This document shows, one piece after another, positions 1,180 through 60,513 of a stretch of DNA of 64,000 nucleotides (positions are counted from its first letter, which is position 1; every line of letters begins with the position of its first letter). The position numbers were made by a program, and so were the translations under genes. The notes beneath the pieces were generated by a model, which saw only the letters and a program-made list of their open reading frames with translations, made no database searches and had not been told where the DNA came from. This stretch comes from a virus, in the IMG/VR virus record IMGVR_UViG_3300021505_000001, positions 32,001 through 96,000 of that record; one strand, written 5' to 3'.

Positions 1180-1329
1180 TTTTGTTTTCTCCTTATGTTA
1201 CAAAATTTAGTTTGTTTTTAAAGGCTTTTTACTTATAATGTTTTAAGAGAAATCAATTGAAAATCAAGTATAGACTTGTAATTTGGTTTTTTATTTATAA
1301 ATAATTATATTCTATCTTATGGAAATGAT

Positions 1330-1358
1330 TTGCATATTTATAAATAATTTTGTATGAT
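1330..1358 (+). promoter_or_regulatory. Sigma70-type promoter for the sigma-factor gene
   Basis: TTGCAT-17 nt-TATGAT. Confidence 0.5.
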
Positions 1359-1418
1359 GATTATATGACTAAAGAAGGTTCAATAAATTTTTCAGTATTA
1401 TAGGAGGTTTACATTATT

Positions 1419-2513
1419 GTGTCACTACAATATCAAATTGATATTAAAGAACAAACTTCTAATAATCATGGTGATCAAAGGGGTATATTTGTACAGGGTA
1501 ACGTAAATAAAAGACGTAGAAAACGAAAAGGTAAGAAAAAATTTAAATCTAAAATTCCAACTATTGAAAGAGTAATTTATATTCTTGAAACAGGTAAATT
1601 AAAAGATTTTACACATCCAAAAGAGGTTGATCCTTATTGGGGGAATTTATATAAACAGTATGAATATTTATGTTACATGAATTTTTATATAAGAAAGGTA
1701 CTAAAGCTATCAAAAATAAATAATCCAACAGTGTATATATGTAAAGATATAGAAATATTATTGTTACAAGTTGAAAAAATAAAGCAACGCCTTTTTAAAC
1801 ATATGATAAATGCTATGTTTATCATGTATGGTTCTGTGATACAATCCCGTTTTTATGGATGGAAAAAATATTCTGATGAGTTTACATCAGCATTTAATGA
1901 AATATCTGCATCGAATATAAAAAATATTCGTTTTGATATTGATAGAACTCGTTGTTCTGTGTATTTCTATCAGGCATTTTGGCTTAATGGTTTATCTATT
2001 ATAAAGAAAATATCAGATAGGTTAAAAAAGCAGTATGAAGATAACGAACAGATTTTTGCTAATAAAGAAAAAGCTTCACAGGATTATGAGAAAGAGTTTA
2101 GTGATTATATAGAAAATGAGACATCCAAATTTATTGATAATTTTAATGCATTAGAGAACAATAAAAGAAAGCGTATTTCTGTAGATACTGAAATAGAAAT
2201 GATAAAAGCTGAAGTTAGAGGAGAGTTACCAACAGTAAAAGAAAATGAAACTGATACTGAAGAGGAGTTGCTTAATGTAAGTAATAATGACTCTCAAGAA
2301 ATGTCTCCTACACAAAAACAAATTCTGTGTGAAAATGTTTTAAAATCTCTTCTTGAAAAATTAAACATAGATATAGATTATATATATGGTAGTAATACTA
2401 AGAATCTTGAATCACTAGTGAGGTTTATACGAAAGAAGATACGGAAAAATGAAATTGAGGTTACAAAAGATATGTTAAAACTACAGAATTTGTTTAGAAA
2501 AACTACTTTTTAA
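1419..2513 (+). CDS. Putative phage late sigma factor (T4 gp55-like region 2)
   Basis: SRFYGWKKYSDEF...IRFDIDRTRCSVYFYQAFW resembles the gp55/sigma region 2 pattern (F.GY...DE...FD......YF.Q); GGAGG RBS before GTG. Confidence 0.5.
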   Translation: MSLQYQIDIKEQTSNNHGDQRGIFVQGNVNKRRRKRKGKKKFKSKIPTIERVIYILETGKLKDFTHPKEVDPYWGNLYKQYEYLCYMNFYIRKVLKLSKINNPTVYICKDIEILLLQVEKIKQRLFKHMINAMFIMYGSVIQSRFYGWKKYSDEFTSAFNEISASNIKNIRFDIDRTRCSVYFYQAFWLNGLSIIKKISDRLKKQYEDNEQIFANKEKASQDYEKEFSDYIENETSKFIDNFNALENNKRKRISVDTEIEMIKAEVRGELPTVKENETDTEEELLNVSNNDSQEMSPTQKQILCENVLKSLLEKLNIDIDYIYGSNTKNLESLVRFIRKKIRKNEIEVTKDMLKLQNLFRKTTF

Positions 2514-3546
2514 TCTTTTTAGAAGCCCTTAAATTATTTTCATGTAAATAAAAAATGGGGTTTTCAGATACATAAGTTCCTGCTATTTTATCATAACTAG
2601 GTGTTTTTTTGCCTTCCCTCAAATTTTTTAATGTTTCCTCAACTGCTTTCATAGTTGACCCAGTAGTACTTGAATCATCAAGCAGGAAGTATTTAGCCTT
2701 AGCTATATCAGTAAATTTATTGAAATCACCATTTAAATATTTTTCTGTGAATCTTTCTTGAATATAATTTTCACGTAAATGAAAAGGAAATTTTTTTATT
2801 TGAAATTCTTTTTCACCAAGAGTTACCACTTTAATATCATGTGAGATTCTTGCTTTTAGATCATGTAAAGCTTGATACTTTTTTGGGTATCTTTTTTTAT
2901 TGGTTTTTTCAATTTCATTATTTATTTTTTCTAATTGTTTTTTGCGCCAAGCATTTATGCTGTCAGATAAATTTTTAGCAGTTTTACCCAATAATGTATT
3001 TTTAGATGTTTTCCCTTTTGTAACAGGAGGTAGTATAATATAATGGGAATCTGTTAATAATTCATGGAACCTTGGGTTTTCAAAGAATCCTTTTAATAAT
3101 TTGTTTGTATAGAAGTCTGTTAGTTTTTTGGGGGGAGAATCTTTTTCACGAGCAAGGATTTTTGTAATACTTTTATCATATTTATTGATTGTAACAACAT
3201 AGCTGTTTTTTATTTTTGAAAAAGAATAGAAAGGATTTAGGTGGGTTCCTACCTTTCTGGTAGCATCTTCCATCATACTCTTAAAAGTAATATCCTCTAC
3301 TTTTTTGGAAGTTGTTTTCTTTTTAGGGAGTATTTTGTTTATAAATTCATTTGGTTTCACGAGAGTTTTTTGAAACCATACAGATTTTTTGTAGCGGGGG
3401 TCTTTTGCTATATGAGGTAAGATTTTAGGGACTAATCTTGTTTTATCCCCTTTTTTCTCAAGGAAACGACTATGAAGGAGAGATGGAATCAACAAATTTC
3501 TTCCAGTTGTTAAATACTTTTTCTTTGTCCAAATTTTCACTGTCAT
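2503..3546 (-). CDS. Type I phosphoribosyltransferase-fold protein
   Basis: PRPP-binding loop YFLLDDSSTTGSTM near the C-terminus; start uncertain (overlaps upstream ORF). Confidence 0.55.
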   Translation of the reverse strand: MTVKIWTKKKYLTTGRNLLIPSLLHSRFLEKKGDKTRLVPKILPHIAKDPRYKKSVWFQKTLVKPNEFINKILPKKKTTSKKVEDITFKSMMEDATRKVGTHLNPFYSFSKIKNSYVVTINKYDKSITKILAREKDSPPKKLTDFYTNKLLKGFFENPRFHELLTDSHYIILPPVTKGKTSKNTLLGKTAKNLSDSINAWRKKQLEKINNEIEKTNKKRYPKKYQALHDLKARISHDIKVVTLGEKEFQIKKFPFHLRENYIQERFTEKYLNGDFNKFTDIAKAKYFLLDDSSTTGSTMKAVEETLKNLREGKKTPSYDKIAGTYVSENPIFYLHENNLRASKKIKK

Positions 3547-3970
3547 TGTTTATAATAGCCCCCATAATAGGGATATTTTTTTTCTCTGCTTTTTTAATAG
3601 TATCCCAAGTTCCTGAACTCGAAGATTTTGGAAAAGCCACGATAACATCTGAAGTATCAACAATTTTTGTATTTCTAATTGGTCCAGCGGCTCTACCAAT
3701 GTTTTTCCAATCAGCATTTATTACATACATAGGTAATTTTATTTCAGAAGCCCATCTTTCAGCCATAGAATCCACACCTTTAGCTCCACCACTAACTATA
3801 GCTATATTTTCTTTGTCTAACATAAAAGCTTCCCTTACAGCTAAGTAAACAGCAGAAAGTATACTATCAAACTCTTTAAAATTATTCCAACTACGAGACC
3901 CTGAAACACCAATAAAGAAAAATTTATCTTTATCTTTAGGAACTTTATTGAGAAGCTCTATTTTTTTCAT
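3470..3970 (-). CDS. SLOG superfamily (DUF2493/YspA-like) protein
   Basis: GVSGSR, IVSGGAKGVD, W...GRAAGPIRN, VAF...S.GT motifs. Confidence 0.85.
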   Translation of the reverse strand: MKKIELLNKVPKDKDKFFFIGVSGSRSWNNFKEFDSILSAVYLAVREAFMLDKENIAIVSGGAKGVDSMAERWASEIKLPMYVINADWKNIGRAAGPIRNTKIVDTSDVIVAFPKSSSSGTWDTIKKAEKKNIPIMGAIINNDSENLDKEKVFNNWKKFVDSISPS

Positions 3971-4024
3971 AAGTAAACTCCTTTTTAGTATTTTAGATAA
4001 ATATACTATAAAGTTTTAAGTTTA

Positions 4025-7000
4025 TCAAGTAAGAAATTCAATAACAGTTTCAGGGACATTAAAGTATTTGTAAATCAATAATGGTGTTCCACCGAGAGAT
4101 TTTATGTCTACAAGACTAGTTATTCTGGAAGAGGGTGTTAATATATTTGAAGTTAATTCTCCATCAATTTGTAAATCATAAGAATTTCTTTCATAAGTTT
4201 CAAATAAAGCTTCTATTTCTCCATCACTTAAAGGACGGTTATAGAGTCTCATTTCATCAAATCTACCACGAAAAAAAGGCAATTCATTCCCAGTAGCATT
4301 TCCTTTTCCAATCCATAATGACGAAGATGAATTTCGTGTAAAGTAAGCATTTGTACTAATCTTTAATGTACCATCAATGTATAGATAAGTAGCATCATTG
4401 TTTACTTGTTTATATACAACATGATGCCATCCATCACCTTTAAATTCAGAAGATAATACATCATTATTCTGTATATTTTTTACAAGTAAGTTATAACCAT
4501 CAAAATCATTACCAAATTTAAATTCAAGACTATTATCAAAATAACAGATATGTCTTGGATGAGTTATATTCTCTGAAACATTTGTTATATTAAACCAAAA
4601 TGATATTGTGTAGTCTGTATTCCTGTTACCAAAGATATTCATAGGAATTTCAGCCCATGATGTATCCCCATCAAATGCTATAGCTTGATATGGATGATAA
4701 TTTTTATCTGCGCAAGACCATGTTCCATAAGAGGTTCCATGCATTTTATTTCCAGATGAATCTACCATACTACCATTTGAAAAATGATATAAACCATCTA
4801 ATCCAAAGTAAAGATAGTATTTTGGAAAAACAGTTTGTATATCTACATCACTAAAATTAGCTATTTTCAGATAAAGGATTTGCGGTTCTTCAGGAGGAAT
4901 ACTTGTAATTTTTACTTCTATATATTTTCCATCCCATTCATCTATACTTCTTGGGTAGGAGTTATCTGTATTAATGGGAATAGTTTCATACATTTCAAGA
5001 GTATTTTGATTAAATACTCTGAAAGGTATTTTAGAAAAAATAGATGTTACTTCTTCAACATCTATTTGTATTTCAGCATCTTCTATCACTTTGGAACTGA
5101 GATTGATAATTTTTAGTTTATACATAGGTATATTAAGTGGTAAATCATAACTACTTATAGAAGGAGATGGGTTTGAATCTTCATATAAAAATGTTCTAAC
5201 AGTACTATTTGGTGGTACAGTAGGAAGTTTTACAACGGTGAATGGAATATATGTAGGATTCACTTTATATACTGGTTCAATTGAAGCACCACTATTCCCT
5301 GTCATAGTTGATGGGTCGGTAAAGTTACCAACAGTTAAAGTAATTAATTCACTGCTATTTGCAGGTATATTGGGCACTATTAATCTGGCTTTATTTGTAT
5401 CCCAATCATCTATGGAATCTGTTAATTCACCATTAGATGTTATTCCAGCTATTTCAACAGTGTTGCTATTAGAATCAACAGCAGAATATTCTACACCAAC
5501 GTTAGCTATATTTACATCAACAATATAATTTGTTAAAGCTGATGAATTATCATTAAAAACTTCAATAGTAAAAGATTGATAATCAGTAACTATTTGATGA
5601 TTAGAGTTTATATCATGTCCTATATATGCCCAATCAAGTAAGTTTGTTTTTTCATAGTCGTTATAACAATTAAATTGGTTTTGTTTATCAGTATAATTTC
5701 TGTAAGTAGATAGAATTATTGATAAATTTTCATATAAATGGATTTCATCATTTTTGTAAGTATATACACTTCCATAAGTATCAAAATCAGGAATATTACC
5801 AGCAACATCCAAACAAAACATTATCAGTTCAGATGAACGTTTAATGTCACCAGGAAGATTGTAGGGTTTAAATACAGCAGGTATTGTTCCTATTAAATCA
5901 TATTTTCTAACGGTAACAGCTTCAGTTTCCTGAGAATGGGCAGGTACTAATTTACCTGTACTATCCATCATAGATACATTATTTGAAAGGGATAAAGTAG
6001 TATGTAAAGATGTAATAGCCCCCCATTTAGTTATTTTTTCATCGTCAAATATAGGATAGATTTGTATTTCTGAAACAATTAAAGGCTTTTTAAAAGAAAT
6101 AATAGTGGTTCCTTGTTTTTGTTTCTTTATAATAGTTGTTGAATTGCCAATATTTTCAAGAACATCAACATTAACAGAATTAGTTTCGTCAAAATATGTA
6201 GTTATTATTCTTTCAGAAGCATAAAAAAATCCATTGCCATCTTTTATAGTTAACACCAGTTTTGTAGGTAAGTTATCCTCAGTAAAATCATTACTAAGAA
6301 AAGAAGGATATTCAGTTATTTCAATACTATCAATTTGTCTATTATTATAAGTAAATGTTATATTTGAATAAATTGGGTAACTCGGATCATATTCAACTCC
6401 AAATAACTGATTAGAAGGATAAGGAAGTGTTTTATCATTAAGAAGATTATTGACATCATTGAATCCATTTAAGGCATTTTTACAAGTAACCATTTTGGGT
6501 TTAACATTGTAGTACATTTTTTTAAAATCAAAATCAAAAAGATTATTTCCTTGTCTAGCTAAAATTGCTACAGGAAGATAATAATTTAGAAATAATAAGG
6601 AGGTTTGTATATTTTCAATATTATCAGGAAAAACAACAAAGTTTTCTTCTGAGCTTATTTCTTCCACATTATTATATAATGATGTATAAGCTACCATAGA
6701 TAAATTGTTGACTATGTCATCAACAATTAAATTTGTCCAAGAATCTCCTTCATTGTGTTTTACATAACCTTTTACTCCATCACCACCTGTTGTTTCTTCA
6801 TGCCTTATTATAAGTGGATAGTAACCTTTTTCTAAATCGATTGAACCACTTGCAGGATTGCTTAGAAAGCCCCCACTACCATATTTAGATGCTACAACCT
6901 GTCCATTAACTTCTATTTCGCATGCATCATTTCCGTTTATACCAAAGTACCAAGTTCCTGATAAAGGAATATATATTATACAGAAAAACATAGTACAGTA

Positions 7001-7597: not shown

Positions 7598-7602
7598 TAT
7601 GA

Positions 7603-8506: not shown

Positions 8507-8866
8507 TTATTCTTTATCTACTTTTATTTTCCATAAACCGAATAGATTTTGTCTATTGGTTGGCTTATAACGAGTTTCATTAAATATAAATCTATCAGAC
8601 ATTTTGACTTCTGGTAAATCTGTATCTTGTATATAAAAGTACATTTGTTGTTGAGTAGTTATATTATTGTTAGAAGAAACAATTTCTGGTTGTTCGCTAT
8701 AAATGCATGGCACAACTATTTCTTCATTATAGTCCTCTTCTGTAACCGGATCAAATGGGTTAGTAGATTGTTGAGAATCTATACGTATTACAGTAACAAG
8801 TGGATTCTCCTCTATTGCTCTCAATTTTGGAAAAACTTTGTCTAAAATTGAACGAATACTTTGCAT
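8507..8866 (-). CDS. Putative head-closure/head-tail joining protein
   Basis: 119 aa; size and beta pattern (SDRFIFNETRY) typical of head-closure proteins. Confidence 0.45.
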   Translation of the reverse strand: MQSIRSILDKVFPKLRAIEENPLVTVIRIDSQQSTNPFDPVTEEDYNEEIVVPCIYSEQPEIVSSNNNITTQQQMYFYIQDTDLPEVKMSDRFIFNETRYKPTNRQNLFGLWKIKVDKE

Positions 8867-8922
8867 TTTTATTTTATTCCTTGTAAATGGTTTATTTTTT
8901 AAATGTTTTCATATAAAATAAA

Positions 8923-9005: not shown

Positions 9006-9084
9006 ATGGTGGACATATCCACCAGTAAAAATAATGAGGGACGTATCCTCCAGTAAAAGATGGGAGACGTATCTCCCAGTAAAA
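9006..9084. repeat. Three tandem 25-nt hairpin units ATG-NNN-GAC(A/G)TATC-NNN-CAGTAAAA
   Basis: Units at 9006-9030, 9034-9058 and 9060-9084. Confidence 0.9.
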
Positions 9085-10703: not shown

Positions 10704-12179
10704 CTACCGTAATATTTCAAATAAAATCCAACTTTGTTCTACACCAACATGAGGGCTTTGATAGTCATCACTACCCCGAAAGACAAGTTCTATGTAATCA
10801 TTTTGTGCTAATTGAATGTAAGTATATGGTATACAACTATTAGCATGTTTAGAATAAATGTAGCCTCTTGTATAAGCTCCAGACATAGTATAATTTAAGA
10901 TAGCACTGCCATTTAATCTTAAAGCAGCTTGCATTGTGTTTCTTGTATTATCACCTGAATCAAGATAATAGAAAATATTATAACATACTAAGCATTGTAA
11001 ATTAGAATTAGCATATAAACGATTGCCAGAACGAGTTATTTGAGAAGCAACAAGTATATTTTTATTAAGATTTAATACTTGCCATGTAGAATTTGATGTT
11101 ATAGTTTGGTCTCCAGATGCACCATACATTATGCGTGGTCTTTCAGTAAAAGAAACTGTAGCAATTCCTCCACCACTATCAGAAGCTTCTATTGGATATA
11201 TAAAATCTAAAGATGTATGAGGTGTGTTTGATATTAGTGAATTATCATCTCTAACTTGAATTGAACTTCCTGAACCGTCAGTACCTTTTTGAGACATTAA
11301 ATCCCAATAATTTGTGTCTGTTGGTGGTTGATAAGCTGTAGTGTTTTGTATACAAACATATGAGGAGCCTTGATATTCTACGGCTTGATTAGTTAAATAA
11401 TTTCTTGTAGAATTCCAAGTACCCTCCCATGTAATATCTCCATCTGCTCCTGGAGGACCTGGTGGTCCTTGTGCCCCAGGACCGCCTACTAATTCTACAA
11501 TTGTAAAAGAAAATGTTCCTGTACTATTGTCAGACATTGTTTTAATAGTTGAATTTCCAACATAACGTCTGGCTCTAACACGAAAACTCTCAATATTTTT
11601 ACAATCTATTATAAAAGAACATGCCCCACCAGTTTCACCTACATTATATTGTCTGTGATAAGTATAAATTAAGCTTCCAGGAACATTATTCCAATCTTGA
11701 CCATTATAATATTGAACAAAAGTCCTTGCACCGCTTCTTGATGTTCCAGAAGTACAATCATATAAAGGTGTTACGATTATTAAACATAATTTATCAGTGG
11801 AAATATTAATATTTCCACTGTTAGTATCTAAATTATCTATAATATTATCATTATAACCTATAGTATCAAAAATAATGGATACATCTGAAGAACCAAGTGT
11901 TGTTTGTGTTGCTTTTATATAACAATAGGCAGATTTAAAAGTAGTTTCATATGGTTCCCAAGCACTATCTGTTTCAGGATTATTTGTAAAAACTCCTTTG
12001 TTATTTGGTGTACTTGTATGTCCAGATTTAACAATATAAAGAAATCCTTTCCATAATACAATCTCTCCTGCAACATATGTTTTGGTTTCATCGAAGAGAC
12101 CATATCCAGGGAACATATCTGAGCCAAGATTATAATCTTTCATATTTTGGTTAGAGGCAGTATAAAAACTATTACTCAT
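10704..12179 (-). CDS. Tail fibre with short collagen Gly-X-Y stretch and CBM5/12-like modules
   Basis: GPGAQGPPGPPGADG; WNSTRNYLTNQAVEYQGSSYVC. Confidence 0.7.
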   Translation of the reverse strand: MSNSFYTASNQNMKDYNLGSDMFPGYGLFDETKTYVAGEIVLWKGFLYIVKSGHTSTPNNKGVFTNNPETDSAWEPYETTFKSAYCYIKATQTTLGSSDVSIIFDTIGYNDNIIDNLDTNSGNINISTDKLCLIIVTPLYDCTSGTSRSGARTFVQYYNGQDWNNVPGSLIYTYHRQYNVGETGGACSFIIDCKNIESFRVRARRYVGNSTIKTMSDNSTGTFSFTIVELVGGPGAQGPPGPPGADGDITWEGTWNSTRNYLTNQAVEYQGSSYVCIQNTTAYQPPTDTNYWDLMSQKGTDGSGSSIQVRDDNSLISNTPHTSLDFIYPIEASDSGGGIATVSFTERPRIMYGASGDQTITSNSTWQVLNLNKNILVASQITRSGNRLYANSNLQCLVCYNIFYYLDSGDNTRNTMQAALRLNGSAILNYTMSGAYTRGYIYSKHANSCIPYTYIQLAQNDYIELVFRGSDDYQSPHVGVEQSWILFEILR

Positions 12180-12258
12180 AATTCAATGTTCCCTGTATTC
12201 ATTAAAGAAGTATAGCTTTTGTTTTTTATGATATGTTTTAAAAATGATAAATTAATAA

Positions 12259-13005
12259 CTAGTTACTATAGTAGTATCTAACTATTAGTTTATCATTTTC
12301 TTGAAGTTGTGTTAGCCCAGAAGCAGTAAAATTTATATGGTTTCCTGAAATAGTATAATCTCCATCTGTAGCATCCTCATCTAATACAATACCATTCAAA
12401 ATAACAAAAACGTGTTTGTCAGAAGAAGGTGTTTGTGAAAGCACAACATATCCATTGTTTATATCTGTATTTGTAAGAATGAATCTATCTGTTTGTTTTG
12501 TAGGTTTTTCTGGAAAACCAAAAGTTCCTATATATCGATAAGCTTTTATTTTGAATGGGGGTGTCCACCCATAAGAGGAGGGATTGTTTTCAAAAATTAA
12601 AACACCTGTTTCATAAAAGAAAAACCAATTAGAAGCATCTGTTGTTGGTATTTCATTGTTATTACTATCAAAAATACGAACTGTGTAGTCTTGACCAAAT
12701 CTAGGGTGTATGAAATGTGTTAATTGCTGTGAACTTATATCACCAGGTGTCTGTTTTGCTTTCCAGCAACGTTCATTTATTACAGTATTATCGAGAGTTA
12801 ATGTTAAGGTATCATAAACTTCAATTACAGATGTTGATGAAGAAGGTGGTGTTGCTATTATATCATCAGTATAAATCTCCGAATTATGAAGATAGGTTGT
12901 AGTAAGAACAAATTCTTCATACCATTTCTTATTAATATCTGTTTCTTCATGTCCTAAAAGAGATTTAAATACCAAATCTAATTTTTGTTGATCAGTTAAT
13001 GGCAT
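12259..13005 (-). CDS. Virion structural protein, paralog of the N-terminus of 13072..16059
   Basis: Shared DLVFK, YEEF, FI.PRF.Q.YTVRIF, NWFF.YE.GVL.FEN.P and YRYIG blocks. Confidence 0.7.
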   Translation of the reverse strand: MPLTDQQKLDLVFKSLLGHEETDINKKWYEEFVLTTTYLHNSEIYTDDIIATPPSSSTSVIEVYDTLTLTLDNTVINERCWKAKQTPGDISSQQLTHFIHPRFGQDYTVRIFDSNNNEIPTTDASNWFFFYETGVLIFENNPSSYGWTPPFKIKAYRYIGTFGFPEKPTKQTDRFILTNTDINNGYVVLSQTPSSDKHVFVILNGIVLDEDATDGDYTISGNHINFTASGLTQLQENDKLIVRYYYSN

Positions 13006-13071: not shown

Positions 13072-16059
13072 TTACCATCCAATTTCAGCAATCCTTGTAA
13101 TTGAATTTGAATTATTTGCAAGAGTAATTCTTACAAAGTAACGATACCCACTATTAGCAGTGGATAATGTTCCCGCTGTCCAATTTATAATTAAAGAGTT
13201 ACCTGATTGTGAATGACCTGTCATTGCTCCGTCACCATCGGTTCCAGAGAATATAGCGGCGTTATAATCTTTACCTAAATCGAGCCATCCACTTTGAGAA
13301 GGCAGTTTAATTTCAACTTTAACATTTCCATTTGAGATAGCACTCCATGTAATATTATCAAGCTGTAATTGCCCTGAATTATGGGGTGTACTAGCTTGAT
13401 ACATTGATCTATAGTATACCTGATCTCCAGAGAATGTAGAGTAATCTAAACTTGAATTTTGATCTGGATTAGGATAAGTTGAGCTATTCCCACTAGGATA
13501 TACTAATGAACCATTAAATACTTGAGCATCACCATTACTTAAAAGTGCTGTACTATCCCATTGGCCAGTTAAGCTTCCACTTGCATTATCAAAGTTATAA
13601 GAAGAAGGAAGTCTCCTATTTTCATCTTGAAAAATATCATTCAATTCTGTTGAAACATTTCCGTAAGTATTTATTAATCGTGTTTCTGCATTAATACTAC
13701 TAATTCCTTCTCCCCAAGGATCGTAAGGAGTTGTTTCAATACTACCATCGGTTGTTGATACATTACTTTGATTTAAAACTAGTGTTTTAGTTGCGGAAAA
13801 GAGGTCATCATATTGAGGTGGAATAGAAATATTTGCATCATCCCAAATATCTAAGGTAATTGTTCCACCAGGCATACTTATTTCTATTAAATCATTTTCA
13901 ATATATGTATATTCAAATAAGTAGTCAGCACTAACAGTAATATCAAATTCTGTGTTCAGTCCATAAAATTTGACACCTGAGAGGTACTTAAAATTAACTG
14001 TTGCACCTTCAACTGCATTAACATCACCTATTGAGGGTCTTGATGATTCATTATCAACAAATAATGTAGTAGTATTTGTAGCTTCACTTTCATGTTCAAG
14101 GCGTATTTGATGATCACCTACACTTAAGTTACTATTTCCATAGGTTGTTCCAAAACGAACTTCCGCATTACCTTTTTGCCACATTGGAAAGTCATTATAC
14201 TTACCAACGGATGTAACATTTATATACCCAGCCGAAGAAGCTGCTGGTGTATAAGATTGATTCCCGTCTCTTTCAGACTCATTAAAGTAGGACTCTAAAT
14301 CAAAATCATCCATTTGATTATCATCTAAGAAGATTGCCAAACTTCCGGTATCTGCTTGATGAAATTTTGTTGATGGATCGGGTGTAGTCCCTATAAAAGA
14401 AGTATCTCTTGTTATAAAAGAGGTAGAATCTCCTGGATTGAGGTATCCGTTTGTTGGTACACCATCAGAAATTTTACCTGATGTAAATGTAGTACTCCAA
14501 TTTATATCTCCTTCTAAAGGTTCAGCATCATCAGGGGCTAAGTATTTAAGAACTTCATTAATATCGTCAACAGCATCATTTACTTGTGTTGAAGAATTAA
14601 GTCCAAGAAGTCCATCAGTATAAGTACCGTCAGTTGGAACCCCAAGAGGTCCAAGTCCACCACCAAGTGAGAGTGTATAGATTGGACGAACATCTTCTAC
14701 TGTAGAAACGGTATTACTGGCATCTGTAGAAAATCTATATAATGCTTGTCCTGTAAGAGGAGCTGTTTGAGGTGATGCTCCAGAGCTATAGTTAATACTA
14801 CCATTGTTCAAATCAACATATACCATATAATAGGTACTTGCTGTTTGAGACATAGTAAGTGTAGTACTTGTTGTTTTATCACCATCTTTATTGTAAACAC
14901 CTGCACCTACAGTTAAATTGATATTAGTACCGTCAGCAGTGAAAGCTGTAAGCGCAAAATCAATACCTTTAACAGCTCTTGGATCGTCTGTTCGTACTGC
15001 TTCATTTGCAGATGTTTCATTATCTTCACCTAACTTTACTTTACCACCTTGAGTAGTGGTAGCATAAGGTATATCACCTACAATTTGATCAGATGGGAAT
15101 ACAGCATTATCATCAAAAGTTGGCCAATCATTAAATTCCAGAACTTCATAGTATCCCCATATAATATTTGTATTGCTAGGGAAGGCATAGTTTGTTTCGG
15201 TTCCATCTTCTTCAATATAGTAAAAATATAAAGTCCAAGTTCCACCTGATTCGGTAAGACGTCCAAAAACTTTATTTCCATCAGTAGTGAGTACTTCATC
15301 TCTATCAGGATATGTAAGAACAGGACACCTATTATATGGGGTTGTAGTAACAACACCTACAGTTGTTTCATTACCACCAGGTGTTTTTCCACTCATATCA
15401 GAAGTAACATCAACACTATTGTTTCCACCAGTTACAGCAACTGAATTAGCTTCCTTAAGGAAAGCCATTTTTTTGTCAACTGAGGCAGCTGAAGTTTCTA
15501 CTGTTTCACCAATGTAGCGGTAAACTCGTATATGGAACGGTGTTGTGAGTCCTGATGCTTCTGGATCATTTTCAAACATCAACACACCGTTTTCATAATC
15601 AAAGAACCAATTTGTAGGATGTGCTGTAGGAACTTCCTTATTTGTATCTATATTTCCTGAACCATCATCTTCAAATATACGTACAGTATAAGTTTGATCA
15701 AATCTTGGTGGTATGAAACCCTTTAACTGAGTTGAAATATCATTAGGAGTAGAACAAGCTAACCAACCTTTATGATCTGCAACAGTTATATCTTCTGTAA
15801 GTTTTAAATCTGCATAATACTGTACAACACTTGTAGTAACTCCTGGAGCAGGAGTTGGTACAGTTTCCGACCAAACTTCGCCTGCATGCAGGTAAGTTAA
15901 GGCACCAGGGAACTCCTCATAAAAAGCTTTATCTAAGCTAGTGACCCTGCGTCCCTTTATCTTTTTAAAGACAAGATCAGTTTTTGTTTGTTGTGATAAT
16001 GGCATTTCTAAATCCTCCTTATTATTGTTGTTTGAAGTAAATATAGTTAGTATAGGCAT
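13072..16059 (-). CDS. Large virion structural protein (alternative start at 16005)
   Basis: 995 aa; N-terminus paralogous to 12259..13005, C-terminal half paralogous to 16124..17752; SD sequences before both ATGs. Confidence 0.75.
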   Translation of the reverse strand: MPILTIFTSNNNNKEDLEMPLSQQTKTDLVFKKIKGRRVTSLDKAFYEEFPGALTYLHAGEVWSETVPTPAPGVTTSVVQYYADLKLTEDITVADHKGWLACSTPNDISTQLKGFIPPRFDQTYTVRIFEDDGSGNIDTNKEVPTAHPTNWFFDYENGVLMFENDPEASGLTTPFHIRVYRYIGETVETSAASVDKKMAFLKEANSVAVTGGNNSVDVTSDMSGKTPGGNETTVGVVTTTPYNRCPVLTYPDRDEVLTTDGNKVFGRLTESGGTWTLYFYYIEEDGTETNYAFPSNTNIIWGYYEVLEFNDWPTFDDNAVFPSDQIVGDIPYATTTQGGKVKLGEDNETSANEAVRTDDPRAVKGIDFALTAFTADGTNINLTVGAGVYNKDGDKTTSTTLTMSQTASTYYMVYVDLNNGSINYSSGASPQTAPLTGQALYRFSTDASNTVSTVEDVRPIYTLSLGGGLGPLGVPTDGTYTDGLLGLNSSTQVNDAVDDINEVLKYLAPDDAEPLEGDINWSTTFTSGKISDGVPTNGYLNPGDSTSFITRDTSFIGTTPDPSTKFHQADTGSLAIFLDDNQMDDFDLESYFNESERDGNQSYTPAASSAGYINVTSVGKYNDFPMWQKGNAEVRFGTTYGNSNLSVGDHQIRLEHESEATNTTTLFVDNESSRPSIGDVNAVEGATVNFKYLSGVKFYGLNTEFDITVSADYLFEYTYIENDLIEISMPGGTITLDIWDDANISIPPQYDDLFSATKTLVLNQSNVSTTDGSIETTPYDPWGEGISSINAETRLINTYGNVSTELNDIFQDENRRLPSSYNFDNASGSLTGQWDSTALLSNGDAQVFNGSLVYPSGNSSTYPNPDQNSSLDYSTFSGDQVYYRSMYQASTPHNSGQLQLDNITWSAISNGNVKVEIKLPSQSGWLDLGKDYNAAIFSGTDGDGAMTGHSQSGNSLIINWTAGTLSTANSGYRYFVRITLANNSNSITRIAEIGW

Positions 16060-16123
16060 TTTATATAACCTTCCTATTTATAAACATTTAAATTATTTAA
16101 ATGTTTTATTTGTAGAATGTTAA

Positions 16124-17752
16124 TTATTCGAAGTCCCATATTTCCGTAATATTTTTTGTTGAATTTATTAATGTTATTCTGAGAATATACATATTCCCTG
16201 AAGAGGCTGTTGAAAAAGTACCTGAAGTCCAATTTATAGTTAATACATCTCCTGATTGTGAATGACCTGTCATCGCACCGTCATCATCAGCTCCAGTAAA
16301 TATAGCAGCATTATAATCTTTACTTAAATCAAGCCATCCAGTCTGTGAAGGTAATTTCAGATGAATATTTAAATTACTCCCTAAATCACTCCATAAAATT
16401 CCTTTTATACGTAGTTGACCAGAATTATGAGGGTTTCCTGAATCACGAAAAGCTCTAAAATATAATTGATCACCAGTAAATGTAGAGTAGTTTGTTCCTG
16501 CTTGTTGTGGTGAAGGCTCCCATCCATTTGTAAAATCAATTGATGGATATACTAATCTATTTACATATACCTGAGCATTTCCGTTAACTAATACTTGAGA
16601 TGAATCCCATTGTCCTATTATAGAAGAAGGAATAGAGGAATAATCTCCATATGGGAGACGATAAGTTTCATCAACAAAATATTCATGAGTATCAGTTGAA
16701 ATACTGTTATAAGTATTCCATAAACAATAACTACGTGTTATTGAAGATGAAACCCCCCATCCTATTGGGTCCCGTGCTTGGGAAGTAAAAGTAATACTAT
16801 CTCCTGCTCCAATTCTATTACACTGTAAATTGTTTGTATAATTCCACGCATCATTATAATCTGGTGGTGTAGAATATCCACTGGAATGTGTATCATTCCA
16901 GGCTATATTCATATTGTTATGTACTGATGAATAGAATCTTACAGGCAAAGATACATAAGTTTTATCAAAAACTCCAACTACAGATATATCTATCCCCCAT
17001 GAAGTATTTATATCATAGTATTCAATTCCAGACATGAATATTGTACTTTCAGAATTAAGTGTTGCCATAAAACCATCTATTGAGGGTCTTCCTGAATCAT
17101 CAAAAAACAAATTATATGTTGGAGATGAATCATTAGTAGAATCATATGAATGATTTACTCTTATGGAATTCTCACCAACATTAATATCTCCTGATGTTAA
17201 GGAAAAAGAGGCGTTTCCTTTTTGATAAGCAGGAAAATTGTTAAACCAACCTACAGATGTAATAGTTATTCTATTCCCAGAAGATGAAGCTGGTGGATAG
17301 GATTGGTTTCCATTCTTTTCTGATTCATTAAAATGAGAAGCTAAATCAAAACTATCTATAGATGTTCCATTAGTATATACTTCTAAAATACCTTTATCTG
17401 CATTTGAAAAACGAATGTTTGGTTCTGATGTACTAAAATGTATATTTGCTGTAGTAACTATGGTATTTATATACTCCCCAGCACTAAAAGTATTTAAACT
17501 TGAGTGATTTGCTACATAACCACTATAAAATGTTGTTGAGAATGTAATATCATTTAAAGGAGAGGGTGGGTCTGGTAAGAGATAAGCAAGAGTTTCATTA
17601 AGTTTATCTAAAGCATCAGGATGTGAATCATTAGGAGAAATATTTGCAGCTCCATCCTCCCATGAACCATCAGAAGGGGTTCCTATATTTCCACTACTAG
17701 AACTTTCATAATAATCAGGCTTGCCTGTTAAAGGATTATATTTATAAGACAT
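16124..17752 (-). CDS. Virion structural protein, paralog of the C-terminal half of 13072..16059
   Basis: Shared G.P.DG...DG, GNQSY.PASS, QKGNA, KLPSQ.GWLDL.KDYNAAIF and GAMTGHSQSG blocks. Confidence 0.75.
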   Translation of the reverse strand: MSYKYNPLTGKPDYYESSSSGNIGTPSDGSWEDGAANISPNDSHPDALDKLNETLAYLLPDPPSPLNDITFSTTFYSGYVANHSSLNTFSAGEYINTIVTTANIHFSTSEPNIRFSNADKGILEVYTNGTSIDSFDLASHFNESEKNGNQSYPPASSSGNRITITSVGWFNNFPAYQKGNASFSLTSGDINVGENSIRVNHSYDSTNDSSPTYNLFFDDSGRPSIDGFMATLNSESTIFMSGIEYYDINTSWGIDISVVGVFDKTYVSLPVRFYSSVHNNMNIAWNDTHSSGYSTPPDYNDAWNYTNNLQCNRIGAGDSITFTSQARDPIGWGVSSSITRSYCLWNTYNSISTDTHEYFVDETYRLPYGDYSSIPSSIIGQWDSSQVLVNGNAQVYVNRLVYPSIDFTNGWEPSPQQAGTNYSTFTGDQLYFRAFRDSGNPHNSGQLRIKGILWSDLGSNLNIHLKLPSQTGWLDLSKDYNAAIFTGADDDGAMTGHSQSGDVLTINWTSGTFSTASSGNMYILRITLINSTKNITEIWDFE

Positions 17753-17848
17753 TATGAATCACACTCCATTTTATAGTTTATCTAATGTTTTTACAAAGGA
17801 TAAATTATAATTTAAAAGAATTAATTTATTTTTCTGTTTAAAAGAAAA

Positions 17849-17881
17849 AAAGGAATAGAATTAAATAAATTCTATTCCTTT
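17849..17881 (-). terminator. Intrinsic terminator
   Basis: AAGGAATAGAAT-loop-ATTCTATTCCTT with an A-run on its left side. Confidence 0.6.
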
Positions 17882-17919: not shown

Positions 17920-18129
17920 TTATACTTCAAGTGATGTTTCACCATATTTAATTGATAAAGTATTATCATCTGTGATTGTTACACGAATATTTTGAGAACC
18001 ATCGAGAACATTTGCAAGGTCTGATGCATTATCTATATTAATTGGTTCTATTTCAAATATGTAACTCTCAGCATTTGGTGGATAATTAATAACTATTGTT
18101 CCTTTGGTTGGTCCATTTGTTCTTGCCAT
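17920..18129 (-). CDS. Small hypothetical (probably late) protein
   Basis: 69 aa, AAGGAGG RBS, TAAAACATT motif upstream. Confidence 0.7.
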   Translation of the reverse strand: MARTNGPTKGTIVINYPPNAESYIFEIEPINIDNASDLANVLDGSQNIRVTITDDNTLSIKYGETSLEV

Positions 18130-18272
18130 TCTATTTCCTCCTTAGATTTTTAAGTACTTATATGTTTCAATTTGCTTAATGTTTTAAGGTTGTAAAAAAT
18201 AATTCTTTAAATAATAATAAAAACATAGTATCCTTACTATAGAAATGTTTTGTTATAACATGGAGATTTAAT

Positions 18273-20311: not shown

Positions 20312-20827
20312 ATGAACAGTGTTGAATTTGTAACTAAATACATGATGTTAAGGCATCCTTATATTTTTCCATCAAAGATAAGTGTACTTGATTATCTTTT
20401 TATGTCAAATGGAAATGGTTGTGAATGGAAAAATGGTGAAATTCATCCATCTGAAGGGATTCCATCTGATTTGGATTTTGATAAATTAGCAGATTCTACT
20501 CGTAAAAAGATAGAAAGAAACAAGGATTATCCAGAAATCGTTAAGAGGCAATGTTATTTTATAATAGATAATGTGGATCTTTTGATTAAGAAAAACTATC
20601 CCTTCCAACCTTATCAAAATTATTATGGAATTTACAAGGATGTTTCCTTATGTACAAAAATACCTGATGATATTAAAGAGGATTGGCGTCGTGCCCTGCT
20701 TGGATTTATAAGATATTATAAACTTTATCTTAATGAGATGATGAAAGGCAAAGTTACCATTAGTGATACAAGTTATATTGAACAGATAACATATGTTGAA
20801 GCTATAATAAAACGTTGTGAAGAATAA
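20312..20827 (+). CDS. Hypothetical protein
   Basis: 171-aa ORF in operon. Confidence 0.7.
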   Translation: MNSVEFVTKYMMLRHPYIFPSKISVLDYLFMSNGNGCEWKNGEIHPSEGIPSDLDFDKLADSTRKKIERNKDYPEIVKRQCYFIIDNVDLLIKKNYPFQPYQNYYGIYKDVSLCTKIPDDIKEDWRRALLGFIRYYKLYLNEMMKGKVTISDTSYIEQITYVEAIIKRCEE

Positions 20828-30202: not shown

Positions 30203-30275
30203 AGATTTGTTTGTGGTGTAGTTTGTAAAACATCTTAATAGATATGTGATGATAAGTTGAGTAGAGGTTTGATAA

Positions 30276-30914
30276 ATGAAAGTTTCCATTTGTAAATGTA
30301 TATATTGTAAGTTTTTGGAGAGTATCAATAAAAAAGAGAATACTCTATCTTGTATACTTGAAAATGGTGAAACTTTATCTTTACCTATTTTAATAGATGC
30401 TGCTACTATTCAAAAGGTTGTGGATTGCCCAAGGGAAGATAATACTGTAAAGATTAAAGTAGTTAAAGATAATGATGGAATTGAAATGCCTTTTTATGCT
30501 ACTCCAAGTTCATCAGGGTTTGATTTAATTGCATCTGAAATGGTACTATTGAAACCAGATGAAAGAAAGTTAATACCTACAGGATTAAGATTTGAAATTC
30601 CTGATGGTTACGAACTTCAAATAAGACCACGTTCAGGAATATCTTTGAAAACTTCTATAATAATGCCTGATTCTCCTGGTACAATAGATGCTGATTATAG
30701 AGGTGAAATTCAAATAATACTTTGGAATACAAGTAATAAGGAGAGTTATACTGTTAATAAGGGAGATAGGATAGCTCAGGGTGTTTTGATTAAAATTGAA
30801 AGAGCTGAGTTTGTTGTGGTTGATGAACTTACAAAAACTATTAGACAAGAAGGTGGTTTTGGTCATACAGGATACTGTGTAAAAGAAGCAAATTTTTGTC
30901 AGAAAAGGGATTAA
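30276..30914 (+). CDS. dut: Trimeric dUTPase with N-terminal Cys-rich extension
   Basis: SSGFDL, IRPRSG, PGTIDADYRGE, GDRIAQ, RQEGGFGHTG (motifs I-V). Confidence 0.95.
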   Translation: MKVSICKCIYCKFLESINKKENTLSCILENGETLSLPILIDAATIQKVVDCPREDNTVKIKVVKDNDGIEMPFYATPSSSGFDLIASEMVLLKPDERKLIPTGLRFEIPDGYELQIRPRSGISLKTSIIMPDSPGTIDADYRGEIQIILWNTSNKESYTVNKGDRIAQGVLIKIERAEFVVVDELTKTIRQEGGFGHTGYCVKEANFCQKRD

Positions 30915-40265: not shown

Positions 40266-40349
40266 ATATTTTATAGCTATCCAAAATAATTTTTTCTTGA
40301 TATACTTTAATAAACAGTATATTTTTATTAAAAGGAGAAACTATAAATA
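40266..40349 (+). repeat. 84-bp intergenic direct repeat, copy 1
   Basis: 83/84 identical to 41764..41847. Confidence 0.9.
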
Positions 40350-51479: not shown

Positions 51480-51824
51480 TTATAAATTTGTTGAAATTAT
51501 TGAATTTTTCCTACCAATATTGTGAAAGAAAGTCCAATCATAAAACTTCCATCTGACAGTTGGTAATAACAAACTTTGTTCCTTGTTTTCAATTATAATA
51601 AATCGTGGGCTGATAGATGTAATTACTCCTTCAAATTCGTTAACTGTAACTTTCCTTCCAAGACATACATATTTATTTGATCTAAATTCAAAATAAGCAA
51701 AGATGTTTTCTGTTAAAGTCTTGAAAACTAAACAGATAAATAATATAAGAATAATCTTTATAGTTAAAAACAATATAGCTGAATCTAATGAATTAACTAT
51801 CTGATTTATTTGGTTTATTGGCAT
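51480..51824 (-). CDS. Small membrane protein with MscS-like beta domain
   Basis: TM helix, then LGRKVTVNEFEGVITSI...LLPT. Confidence 0.55.
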   Translation of the reverse strand: MPINQINQIVNSLDSAILFLTIKIILILFICLVFKTLTENIFAYFEFRSNKYVCLGRKVTVNEFEGVITSISPRFIIIENKEQSLLLPTVRWKFYDWTFFHNIGRKNSIISTNL

Positions 51825-52269
51825 ACCAATCTCCATACTTCTCATAACCTGTTGAATCTAAAATATTTATCTCTTCTGCTTTCCATTGAGTAACTTCTAT
51901 TAATTTTCTAAGTGTTGGTGTAGAGGATAAGACAGCATTTTGTCCATACAATTTACCAAAATACTTACCTACCAAGATACATCCTTCTACATTAGTTTTA
52001 TAGCCTTTCCTGGTATCTCCTGCAAGGTTACCATTATGAATTAGTACCCACTTTCTATCAGGAACATCTAATAAGTGGTAACATTTTCTACGTCCTCTGA
52101 ATAAATGTCGTTCTAATTTATAGATACCTGGTGGTATACAAGAATAGTTTGGTTTGTTGTCATCCCAAGGTAGTTCTAAAGTATAACAAAAGAATCCATC
52201 ATTTATTAAAAGCAATCCTTTTGTTCCCTGTTCTGAACTTGAAAGTCTTATTAATTTTAATTTATACAT
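51793..52269 (-). CDS. DUF5675 family protein (candidate endolysin)
   Basis: T.G.L, CYTLELPW, SCIPPG.Y, VP.R..VLIH.GN, EGCILVG. Confidence 0.8.
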   Translation of the reverse strand: MYKLKLIRLSSSEQGTKGLLLINDGFFCYTLELPWDDNKPNYSCIPPGIYKLERHLFRGRRKCYHLLDVPDRKWVLIHNGNLAGDTRKGYKTNVEGCILVGKYFGKLYGQNAVLSSTPTLRKLIEVTQWKAEEINILDSTGYEKYGDWYANKPNKSDS

Positions 52270-52330
52270 AATATTTTCTCTCTTAAATTAGATTTTATTT
52301 TCTTTTATTTATATGTTTTATTATATATAC

Positions 52331-52459: not shown

Positions 52460-54451
<1,992 letters not shown>

Positions 54452-56010: not shown

Positions 56011-56072
56011 TTTACATCCACGATAAACTATTGTGGCTATAAAACGAAGGAAATTAATATAGTATCTGGCGT

Positions 56073-56588: not shown

Positions 56589-56602
56589 AAAAACCTCCTT
56601 AT

Positions 56603-57906: not shown

Positions 57907-57916
57907 GATATCTCAA

Positions 57917-58627
57917 TTATGAGTTAGCTATAAGATTATCAACAATAACACCTAATTCATTTGGTGTAGTTGTAGTATCGTAGTGTGTCTGTCCATAGGC
58001 TTCTTCACCACGTCCATTTTGCCAACTAAAATTAATTCTATAATTAGTTCTTTCTCCATTAGCCCGTGAACCAAATCCCTGATAAGAAACAGAACCACTT
58101 TGCCAATCAGTTGGGGATACGTTTACGTTAATATCTGAGAGTACCCACTGAAGTTGATTTAATACATCATTTTCAGGATGCGCTGTACCAACTGTTGTCA
58201 GTTTTGTTCTTGCAGTATTTATAATTTGATCACGTGAGTTGTTAATATCCTCAAAGTTAGCAACAACCCTAGCATTAATTTGTCCTTCTGTATGAGTATA
58301 TGTGGCTGCTGATGCTCCGCTACACTCTCCTGCCAGGGTAATAACATAACCAGATTCTAATGCTGTTGTTACACCATCTTTAGCAATCCAATTGACGATA
58401 TTTTGATCTTTCCAATTTGCACTGGCTGATTGCATACAAACATCCCCTGTATGAGCATCAGCAATATCTCCACAGATATAAAGTACTGTGTTCTTATCAA
58501 GAGATACGTTTGTAATAAACAGTTTGACACAATCTAATCCACAACGGAAGAGTTCTCTTCCTGTGTTGATGTTATACTCAGTTGCACCATCAGATGGAAT
58601 TCCATAATTTACTATTGGACAAGCCAT
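57917..58627 (-). CDS. Putative virion structural protein
   Basis: AAGGAGG RBS, TAAAACATT motif upstream. Confidence 0.6.
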   Translation of the reverse strand: MACPIVNYGIPSDGATEYNINTGRELFRCGLDCVKLFITNVSLDKNTVLYICGDIADAHTGDVCMQSASANWKDQNIVNWIAKDGVTTALESGYVITLAGECSGASAATYTHTEGQINARVVANFEDINNSRDQIINTARTKLTTVGTAHPENDVLNQLQWVLSDINVNVSPTDWQSGSVSYQGFGSRANGERTNYRINFSWQNGRGEEAYGQTHYDTTTTPNELGVIVDNLIANS

Positions 58628-58662
58628 TTTTTATTCCTCCTTAATAGGTTTTTTCTAATGTT

Positions 58663-60450
58663 TTACATAAATACAAGTAAACATTTATTTATTTTAAGTT
58701 CTGAATATGGATACGCCCATATAATTTCTATTAAACAATTAGCCTTATCTACAAGAGTACTAAGACACTGTACGTTAATATCTATTGGTATGTATTTTGG
58801 TAAATCAACTATGGTAACTTCTCCATAATTCATCTCCTCAGCACCAACCACAACCTTTAAATATCCATGTTGTCTAAGATATTCATAATAAGCCTTTTCA
58901 TCTCCATCATATTCTGATGGAATTTCCATAAATTTGTATCGTATTTTGCAGTACAATGGTTTACCTAATGGAATCAGCTTTCCATTGAAAATCTTAGTAT
59001 GAGTTGTATATGTCCTAATATTTTGTCTTGATAAGGATAATTTCCCAAGATTTGTAATAGAATTGTCATAGTTATCTATCAATATTAAATCAGTATTAAG
59101 AAACTTATCATCAATTGGAAATTGATAGTATTGCCCATTGTTATCTACAACAGGAACTGAAAATAACTGATTTCCTGATAGATTACTTATTGTAAAGTTA
59201 AAAGAAAAGTAATGAGGATTTACTGTAAAATTATATTTGGTATGGAAAACATCTGTAAATCCATATCTAATTGTTTCAAACTTATGTTTTTCAAATTGTC
59301 CCCATAAATAACGTTGATCTGCAAATACAGACTTTTCTTTAGCATGGGTTATACATATTCTATCACTTGGCCACCAATAGTTTGTAGTACACCATCTATA
59401 ATCATTATAGATACATAAAGTAAATCCTTTTCTTTCATCACCCAAATGAGCTATTTGACTACAAATACCTTTACGTTCATTATCTAATAATTTGTAGGAT
59501 ACTGTTTCACATTCACGTATGTTCTCATAAATAACATAGCTGTTTACATATAAACGTTTATCATTGTGTTCTGTATGATAAACTTCATAAAGAGTATTTC
59601 TATCATTTCCAATAATTTCTCTTTTAACGAAACAGTTTTTATTAGATGAAGTTACAATATAAATATCATAAGTTGAGCTTCTATCAGATGTAAAGGTATT
59701 ATAAAGATGTAAGTGAATTTGTCTATCATTAGAGATTGTTCCCCAACTATTCCAAAAGCCAAGCTCTCTTTCTGTTATACCCTGTATTCCTTCCTGAGCT
59801 ATATTATATTTGACTCTATGATATTGAACAGCAGTATCGGTTAATAGTATTAAATATACTGATTCTGAATCAGAATCAATTTTGTATCTTATAAGGTATT
59901 CTGAACTGTACTCTTTATAAGTTGTATTAGTTAGTTTTATATTATAGAAACTTTGATGTTTATTTCCTAAATGTATTGTATAACTAGAAACATTTGAGAC
60001 ATAAAAAAGTATATTGTATTTTGATTCATTTATTTTCGTTAAAGAATATCTTATGTAATAGTCAGATTTATGACTTGTTGATAGTCTAATGCTATAACTA
60101 ACTATATTTTCTGTGCCGAATCTATGTAATATGTAATAAGGGCTTTCAAATATGGATAAATAGATATCATAGTTTAGAATATTGTATTTGGAGACATGAT
60201 TGTTGATTAACCGTATTCCATAATTAGAAGCATGCAGTGTAGTAGCTTTAAATCGTTTAATATCATACTTAGAGCGATGATTATTATTTAATAATACCTT
60301 ATAAACAGAAGTATGTAATGTAGTAGCTTCAAATCGTTTAATATCATATTTAGAGCGATGAGTAGCTAATTCTCTAATACTATAAACACTATTGTGGATA
60401 GTAGTGATTGATGTGCGTGGTGTTTCTCTGAATATAGTTAGTATAGGCAT
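58663..60450 (-). CDS. Repeat-rich virion protein (HxSxY and D/E-R repeats)
   Basis: Periodic H.S.Y.I units, then (D/E)R units. Confidence 0.6.
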   Translation of the reverse strand: MPILTIFRETPRTSITTIHNSVYSIRELATHRSKYDIKRFEATTLHTSVYKVLLNNNHRSKYDIKRFKATTLHASNYGIRLINNHVSKYNILNYDIYLSIFESPYYILHRFGTENIVSYSIRLSTSHKSDYYIRYSLTKINESKYNILFYVSNVSSYTIHLGNKHQSFYNIKLTNTTYKEYSSEYLIRYKIDSDSESVYLILLTDTAVQYHRVKYNIAQEGIQGITERELGFWNSWGTISNDRQIHLHLYNTFTSDRSSTYDIYIVTSSNKNCFVKREIIGNDRNTLYEVYHTEHNDKRLYVNSYVIYENIRECETVSYKLLDNERKGICSQIAHLGDERKGFTLCIYNDYRWCTTNYWWPSDRICITHAKEKSVFADQRYLWGQFEKHKFETIRYGFTDVFHTKYNFTVNPHYFSFNFTISNLSGNQLFSVPVVDNNGQYYQFPIDDKFLNTDLILIDNYDNSITNLGKLSLSRQNIRTYTTHTKIFNGKLIPLGKPLYCKIRYKFMEIPSEYDGDEKAYYEYLRQHGYLKVVVGAEEMNYGEVTIVDLPKYIPIDINVQCLSTLVDKANCLIEIIWAYPYSELKINKCLLVFM

Positions 60451-60513
60451 TTAGAGATTATAGTCCTATCTTTTTTAAATGGTTAAGTTTTTTTGAATGT
60501 TTTACTTATAATA

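Follow-up and report, generated by a model that had tools for sequence, protein, structure and literature searches.

We analysed a 64,000-nucleotide stretch of viral DNA (the window), comprising bases 32001-96000 of the linear 155.7-kb contig IMGVR_UViG_3300021505_000001 (hereafter G000), in which a short sequence box, TAAAACATT, precedes structural genes. In every respect that can be computed, the box behaves as a phage-specific single-element promoter of virion genes would: it is enriched upstream of genes, oriented toward them at a restricted distance, specific to one gene class and conserved in related phages. We consider it probable (roughly 0.6) that TAAAACATT is such a promoter and that the core of the host RNA polymerase is redirected to it by a specificity factor made by the phage. 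The original prediction for this stretch had proposed a single-box late promoter different from that of phage T4, and this proposal is supported by enrichment, strand specificity, gene class and conservation in relatives, from which promoter function and late timing are inferred.

The box reads TAAAACATT, usually followed by 2 nucleotides (nt) and then AAAAA, with the consensus T-AAAACAT-T-NN-AAAAA. The nine minus-strand sites and the plus-strand site at 44608-44616 originally listed are all present exactly at their positions (Table 1), and every gene start assigned to them coincides with the start of an open reading frame (ORF). The proximity of motif and start codon likewise stands, the measured distances being 29-57 nt and not the 30-58 nt first given. 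An eleventh window site, at 30226 (+), was absent from that list. Over the whole window, the degenerate pattern DAAAACATW shows no excess: it occurs 26 times, where dinucleotide-shuffled sequence gives 22.6 ± 4.5, and 15 of these occurrences fall in coding DNA; because of this lack of excess, the analysis turned to tests of placement. The word TAAAACAT has 13 matches in the window, nine of them within or bordering intergenic DNA, which makes up 9% of the sequence. All nine face a start codon 29-86 nt away, and the upstream regions of the window contain eight matches when 1.6 are expected from an order-3 Markov model of these regions themselves (P = 2.6×10−4). Across the contig there are 35 matches, of which approximately 24 are non-coding. 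An unbiased search for 8-mers was performed on the 99 upstream regions of G000, with the expectation again taken from an order-3 Markov model of the AT-rich regions under search. The top-ranked words were TAAAACAT (21 vs. 3.75 expected) and AAAACATT (24 vs. 4.95), with P ~6×10−10, and both ranked above the Shine-Dalgarno words. Thus, the enrichment over an AT-matched background on which the prediction depended was found in the window and in the contig alike.

A weight matrix of the box gave 22 hits scoring at least 14, and 21 of these are non-coding and face a gene. The sole strong hit in coding DNA is an antisense box at 60867-60889 (+), GAAAACATTTAAAAATG (score 15.4), inside the minus-strand gene 60573-60896, which could be a product of chance or an antisense promoter. 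In the information profile of the box sites, every position from -40 to -2 carries at most 0.25 bit, in agreement with the earlier statement that no -35 element is shared, and the profile contains no separate conserved -10 element at any fixed distance downstream of the box. A search of the literature for the literal motif string matched primers only.

The placement of the box is strongly directional. In gaps between co-directional genes, 16 boxes are sense and two are antisense (P = 7×10−4), which bears out the predicted strand specificity. Boxes are densest where genes diverge (5.9/kb of gap), less dense between co-directional genes (2.1/kb) and sparsest where genes converge (0.46/kb). Within a divergent gap, every box is oriented toward its own gene and pairs are always back-to-back; three such pairs are tight, in gaps of 62-103 bp, and in the 62-bp and 73-bp gaps the paired boxes are the sole sequence in common. 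The distance to the start codon is 25-58 nt in 25 of 28 sites (median ~40), and one apparent outlier reflects a mis-called TTG start. Three window boxes lie directly downstream of terminator-like hairpins (Table 1). Separately, two divergent promoter pairs elsewhere on the contig (128928-128975 and 130996-131045; locus L005) carry an identical 16-mer, AAAACATTTGAAAAAC, on all four arms, which suggests either recent duplication at this locus or a sub-class that is particularly strong.

The box also distinguishes structural from other genes, as had been anticipated. Within the window it is present in nine of the 16 upstream regions of minus-strand (structural) genes and in one of the 31 of plus-strand genes (P = 7×10−5). 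It stands at the head of units with tail-fibre genes, of the gp20 portal operon, of the head maturation protease and of the unit that encodes the 874-amino-acid (aa) protein and the gp23 capsid, and it heads most of the large virion-region proteins without an assigned function. Among the upstream regions of G000, no box was found before the genes for DNA polymerase, DnaB, other helicases, clamp loader, ligase and NrdD, nor before those for the methyltransferase, phosphoesterases and sigma factor.

Table 1. Box sites and other features located in the window (positions are those of the window; scores are from the weight matrix of the box).
Feature	Position (strand)	Context	Score and remarks
TAAAACATT box	1237..1245 (-)	57 nt before 330-aa gene 187-1179 (tail-fibre-like C-terminus)	15.2; G003 ortholog also boxed
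GAAAACATT box	8902..8910 (-)	35 nt before gene 8507-8866, head of unit with 1190-aa protein	18.9
TAAAACATA box	12232..12240 (-)	52 nt before tail-fibre gene 10704-12179 (PHROG tail fibre, CBM_5_12)	14.2
TAAAACATT box	16100..16108 (-)	40 nt before 995-aa gene 13072-16059	16.7
AAAAACATT box	17784..17792 (-)	31 nt before 542-aa gene 16124-17752	15.2
TAAAACATT box	18178..18186 (-)	48 nt before 69-aa gene 17920-18129; divergent gap at structural/replication boundary	12.9
TAAAACATC box	30226..30234 (+)	42 nt before dUTPase gene 30276-30914	12.2; weaker variant without A-run
TAAAACATT box	44608..44616 (+)	Ahead of ORFs 44703/44908 (FN3 domain protein)	13.5
TAAAACATA box	52312..52320 (-)	42 nt before DUF5675 gene 51793-52269, then two membrane-protein genes (possible lysis cassette)	14.7
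TAAAACATT box	58657..58665 (-)	29 nt before gene 57917-58627	20.7; G003 ortholog also boxed; overlaps final 3 nt of upstream gene
TAAAACATT box	60496..60504 (-)	45 nt before 595-aa gene 58663-60450	18.9
Terminator-like hairpin	60513..60549 (-)	Box 60496 begins 8 nt downstream; terminator-then-promoter order	GC-rich, with T-run
Terminator-like hairpin	17849..17881 (-)	Between gene 17920-18129 and box 17784	
Terminator-like hairpin	9061-9078	Box 8902 lies downstream	
Sigma-70-type promoter	40290..40335 (+)	Before ankyrin gene	T-tract + TTGATA, 17-nt spacer, TATTTT
Sigma-70-type promoter	~41788-41833	Before ankyrin gene	Near-identical copy
364-aa protein	1419..2513 (+)	No assigned function	Conserved

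Two of the labels attached to boxed genes were also checked. The FN3 domain was confirmed for 44908-45342, in accordance with the operon name originally given, and the genes at 52269 that had been called a lysis cassette are present as a DUF5675 gene and two membrane-protein genes, for which that label is plausible and no more. At 44680-44692 (+), downstream of the box at 44608, a strong Shine-Dalgarno sequence, AAAAAGGAGGG, is followed by a mini-ORF of three codons (ATG GAT TAA); the FN3 ORFs that come after it have TTG starts and overlap each other.

G000 has an estimated completeness of ~60% and a G+C content of ~30%. In profile searches its portal protein matched PF07230 (gp20) and its major capsid protein PF07068 (Gp23), and on these matches the phage is assigned to the T4 superfamily as an uncultured giant phage. 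The best GenBank matches of the capsid protein are SCTP-2, Atu_ph07, CBB and GAP32-type jumbo phages (25-31% identity), those of the portal are 21-23% identical, and searches of cultured phages by DNA and protein found none closely related. Like group 2 (gp23-type) jumbo phages, G000 combines a gp23-type capsid, a gp20 portal and a phage sigma factor with the lack of a phage RNA polymerase. Relatives were gathered through protein alignments, since scanning viral contigs with the portal or the sigma protein singly had recovered none. Two of them were used throughout: G003 (67 kb), whose portal is 43% identical to that of G000, and G004 (273.6 kb, 97% complete). Identical copies of the sigma factor and of the 364-aa protein of Table 1 (P0041 / P0042) are recorded on a 203,420-bp contig, hence a longer assembly of the G000 phage exists.

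At least seven uncultured relatives have the box as well, frequently at orthologous positions, and one relative also carries TAAAACCTT. In G003, TAAAACAT is independently the top upstream 8-mer (13 vs. 1.9 expected), and it is enriched in G004 as well (12 vs. 2.0). The same back-to-back pairs are found in G003, one of them directly before the portal gene. When orthologs of G000 and G003 were compared, 9 of 12 box-positive genes were also boxed in G003 vs. 3 of 12 box-negative genes (P = 0.02). Upstream of a 188-aa gene, the most conserved one (74-86% identity), an exact TAAAAC(A/C)T lies 50-58 nt before the ATG in 7 of 11 orthologous regions, G004 having the near variant TAAAAACTT, and the DNA around the box is otherwise unalignable among these orthologs. 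A 1803-aa protein with multiple Kelch-repeat propellers (contig 100676-106087; L004:4676-10087) has counterparts of 48-51% identity in G003 and G004, and its gene has the box 32-54 nt upstream in all three phages. In new metagenome loci, the density of matrix hits in non-coding DNA is 47x that in coding DNA. The sixth base of the box is always A in G000 and G003 and either A or C in G004; it may co-vary with the residues of the sigma factor that read the -10 element.

The late promoters of T4, TATAAATA, are read by gp55 together with gp33 and the gp45 clamp. This motif is not enriched in G003 (1 vs. 1.5 expected) or G004 (4 vs. 3.8) and is marginal in G000 (10 vs. 5.2, P = 0.04); ATAAATA is not enriched in G003 or G004.

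A second, canonical promoter class was observed in G000, composed of a T-tract, TTGACA or TTGATA, a 17-nt spacer and a TATATT-like element. Promoters of this sigma-70 type had been ascribed to plus-strand replication genes; they do exist (~40294 and ~41792), but not before replication genes, and that ascription is not borne out: those two precede ankyrin genes, and others precede the sigma-gene operon and further genes. As a class they are not enriched in G000 (14 vs. 10.8 in shuffles), and sigma-70-like matches in the structural region equal those in shuffles. The two kinds of upstream region are nearly disjoint: 23 have the box alone, 12 a sigma-70-type promoter alone, and two have both.

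In G004, three tiers can be distinguished. The first consists of early promoters (TTCAAA-AGTACTTGACA, a 17-nt spacer, and TATAAT or TATACT) clustered at 111-157 kb. This part of the contig (L022-L024), which is a textbook host-takeover region, contains ~30 near-identical strong early promoters before small genes, each with a conserved TTTAAGTGGTTGGGGA leader. The second is a single box, AATACTAAA (18 vs. 3.0 expected), that precedes genes of replication and recombination by 10-56 nt, with examples at contig positions 49212, 99866/99885, 195964 and 227190 (L017-L030); it looks like a separate, middle-type promoter class. A weakly supported G000 analog may be (A/T)ATAGTTA at contig positions 1846, 5434 and 84401. 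The third tier is AAAACAT(T), with the variant AAAACCT, before structural genes.

How the box might be read was considered from the side of the transcription machinery. Profile searches with PF00562 and PF00940, the latter run without a positive control, found no gene for a phage RNA polymerase of the multisubunit or T7 type, and the host enzyme must therefore be used. G000 and G004 have one sigma-70-family gene each, syntenic with an HU-like gene. The G000 protein (330 aa, contig 11495-12487, beyond the window) matches PF04542 (Sigma70_r2) with 32-35 bits and TIGR02937 with 53 bits over model positions 3-164 of 165; given this near-full-length match, regions 2 and 4 are present, following a 135-aa N-terminal extension. 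Its PHROG family is the generic phrog_351. When region 2 is aligned to solved SigA/RpoD chains, F427, Y430 and W434 (E. coli numbering) are kept, whereas W433, R436, Q437, T440 and R441 are replaced, and the replacements would be consistent with a -10 element whose upstream half is altered. The sigma operon has an early, sigma-70-type promoter (TTGACA, a 17-nt spacer, TACATT), as would suit an early gene whose product turns on a later class. The sole further contig with a relative of this sigma factor (L037, 30% identity) is without the box.

We propose that TAAAACATT would drive the structural genes, late or possibly middle and late, in an uncultured clade of T4-superfamily giant phages. It would serve as a single -10-like element without a -35 partner, to which a phage specificity factor would redirect the core of the host polymerase. 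In a plausible register, AACATT would span -12 to -7 (with A at -11 and T at -7), TAAA would extend it upstream and the A-run would lie at the start site. The factor would most likely be the phage's only sigma-like protein, although the chance that this particular protein reads the box is, in our estimate, somewhat short of even.

Several observations weigh against this proposal. A few boxes precede non-structural genes, namely an HU-like gene pair outside the window and the dUTPase gene, the latter with a weak variant. The sigma factor of G000 has a region 4.2-like helix-turn-helix, which is usually paired with a -35 element. In G004 there are two single-box classes and one detectable sigma factor, so at least one of these classes needs another reader. 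The conservation of box positions between G000 and G004 is not significant, because their operons differ, and G000 is just ~60% complete. Finally, phages of the CBB/GAP32 type carry both an RpoD-like and a gp55-like sigma factor, and the ATAAATA box of the latter serves structural genes (PMC5259590); by analogy, the RpoD-like sigma factor of G000 might serve a middle class.

The same promoter could instead be read in the T4 manner by a very divergent, gp55-like minimal sigma factor, encoded in the missing 40% of the genome or identical with the 364-aa protein of the window. Capsid and portal are indeed of the T4 type, and a gp55-like sigma factor together with a single-box late promoter is found in the nearest cultured jumbo phages (PMC5259590, PMC7824862). 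We regard this reading as unlikely. The PHROG profiles of gp55 (phrog_234 and phrog_12791) found none in G000-G004, including the 97%-complete G004, with G000 at ~60% completeness; a custom profile of six diverse gp55s (unfiltered, --max) gave nothing below E 0.1, the best E being 0.14; and TATAAATA is not enriched beyond its marginal excess in G000. A 171-aa ORF (20312-20827) beside the gp47-like exonuclease was considered as gp55 and rejected, as it is not gp55-like. A clamp loader is present in G000; gp45 (phrog_223) was not found in the ~60%-complete fragment, and no search was made for gp33.

The 364-aa protein had been put forward as the transcription factor. Its family, which is conserved across the clade, comprises at least 20 homologs from uncultured sources, and the most conserved block of this family aligns onto the gp55 core, where invariant F, E, FD, Y..Q and AF coincide. 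The alignment is not significant in hhalign even with a profile of 22 sequences (probability 0.4-0.5%, E 0.11), the profile did not recover T4 gp55 among PDB sequences, and searches of Pfam, PHROG and NCBIfam returned no match. Atlas leads were RecO-like, with scores of 0.82-0.86 that lie below the useful threshold. AlphaFold models with a predicted local distance difference test (pLDDT) score of 45 for this protein and of 57 were both too poor for fold searches. The nomination thus found no supported homology to any transcription protein, and we treat the protein as a weak lead. One homolog, P0049, is on a 2.7-kb contig labelled as a Candidatus Aenigmatarchaeota bin, which is probably mis-binned phage DNA.

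Reading by a host sigma holoenzyme would need no phage sigma factor: the box would be an unusual extended -10-type promoter, aided or appropriated by a phage activator, for which T4 MotA/AsiA and the factors of Thermus phage P23-45 are precedents. AACATT conforms to the A(-11) and T(-7) rule, host sigma-70 promoters are clearly used for other phage genes, and the promoter classes of G004 outnumber its sigma factors. This explanation nevertheless seems improbable to us, as the invariant C and the TAAA prefix are unlike any -10 or TGn consensus and the box and sigma-70-type promoters are mutually exclusive (two regions with both); a MotA/AsiA-like gene was not identified, with no specific search made.

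We find it very improbable that the box is not a promoter core but either a binding site for a phage regulator or an element of late-mRNA 5' leaders that acts at the RNA level, as a processing site or as a translational operator. Its sense orientation within ~60 nt of start codons would also suit a leader element, but the distance to the Shine-Dalgarno sequence and start codon varies by 30 nt, several boxes come directly after terminators, no separate conserved -10 element lies downstream of the box at any fixed distance, and the promoters in the 62- and 73-bp divergent gaps, which share the boxes alone, would otherwise be signal-less. The idea that the box is a chance product of AT-rich intergenic DNA, with which the shuffle-like count of the degenerate pattern agrees, is refuted to near certainty by enrichment over intergenic-built backgrounds, strand specificity and conservation in independent phages.

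Some further features of the G000 contig were observed beyond the promoters. The family matches of the clamp loader, a DnaB-like helicase and a nicotinamide phosphoribosyltransferase (contig 2671-4560, 21224-22867 and 152333-154696; L002, L003 and L006) are each split in two by a foreign insert, which suggests inteins. Two paralogous HNH homing endonucleases of 588/610 aa lie among the head genes (contig 108304 and 119931). At least six tandem ATAGTTA heptamers (contig 155659-155702; right end of L006, beyond the window) terminate the contig just upstream of its last minus-strand gene, where the assembly may have broken at the repeat.

Late-promoter boxes are the main handle on transcription units and their timing in uncultured phages, and the present box would mark out the late regulon of a clade of environmental giant phages in the T4 superfamily, none of them cultured. 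Coliphages, cyanophages and cultured jumbo phages alike retain the TATAAATA/gp55 system; the box would imply that it is not universal in the T4 superfamily. We tentatively raise the possibility that the clade dropped this system and that TAAAAC(A/C)TT is read by a region-4-containing, RpoD-like sigma factor without a -35 element, or by an unrecognisably divergent gp55 (the 364-aa family). A short, testable pairing is thereby offered, of the box with one sigma gene and with a second candidate protein. The novelty originally claimed holds for the box sequence and the clade and not for the principle, since elements of this kind are known from T4 and phiEco32, and single-element promoters read by phage sigma factors are nothing new.

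Compared with known systems, the box most resembles the late promoters of T4 and the gp36 promoters of phiEco32. As in T4, a single -10-like box without a -35 element precedes the virion genes of a phage with a gp23 capsid and a gp20 portal that reuses the host polymerase. Unlike T4, the box has an invariant C, TATAAATA is not enriched, gp55 is undetectable even in the 97%-complete G004, and the only sigma-like gene of G000 is RpoD-like, with region 4; the system thus falls outside the T4 late class on box sequence and gp55. In phiEco32, the middle/late promoters have the single element tAATGTAtA, which is recognised by the gp36 sigma factor and lies 6-8 bp upstream of the starts (PMC8948821); the C-terminal domain of gp36 nonetheless remains in contact with the -35 region (PMC12276001). 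The reverse complement of our box, AATGTTTTA, was considered as a phiEco32-like box and rejected, TAAAACATT being the sense orientation according to the strand test. Shared with phiEco32 are a phage sigma-70-family factor, one element near -10 and early genes left to host sigma-70, and starts would likewise be expected a few bases downstream of the G000 box. The lineage and box sequence are unrelated to those of G000, whose predicted sigma factor is set apart by its clear region 4.2-like helix-turn-helix and its long N-terminal extension. The RaK2/GAP32/CBB-type (group 2.2) jumbo phages combine RpoD-like early promoters with UP elements, a phage RpoD-like sigma factor and a late ATAAATA box (PMC5259590, PMC7824862). 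Their late box differs from TAAAAC(A/C)TT, and the gp55-like sigma factor they carry is undetectable in our phages, but they are the closest cultured relatives by capsid (25-31% identity), the same three-tier layout is found in G004, where strong early promoters (TTGACA, a 17-nt spacer, TATAAT) are gathered in one region, and the phage sigma gene of G000 belongs to an early operon, that of G004 being situated just beyond the cluster of early promoters.

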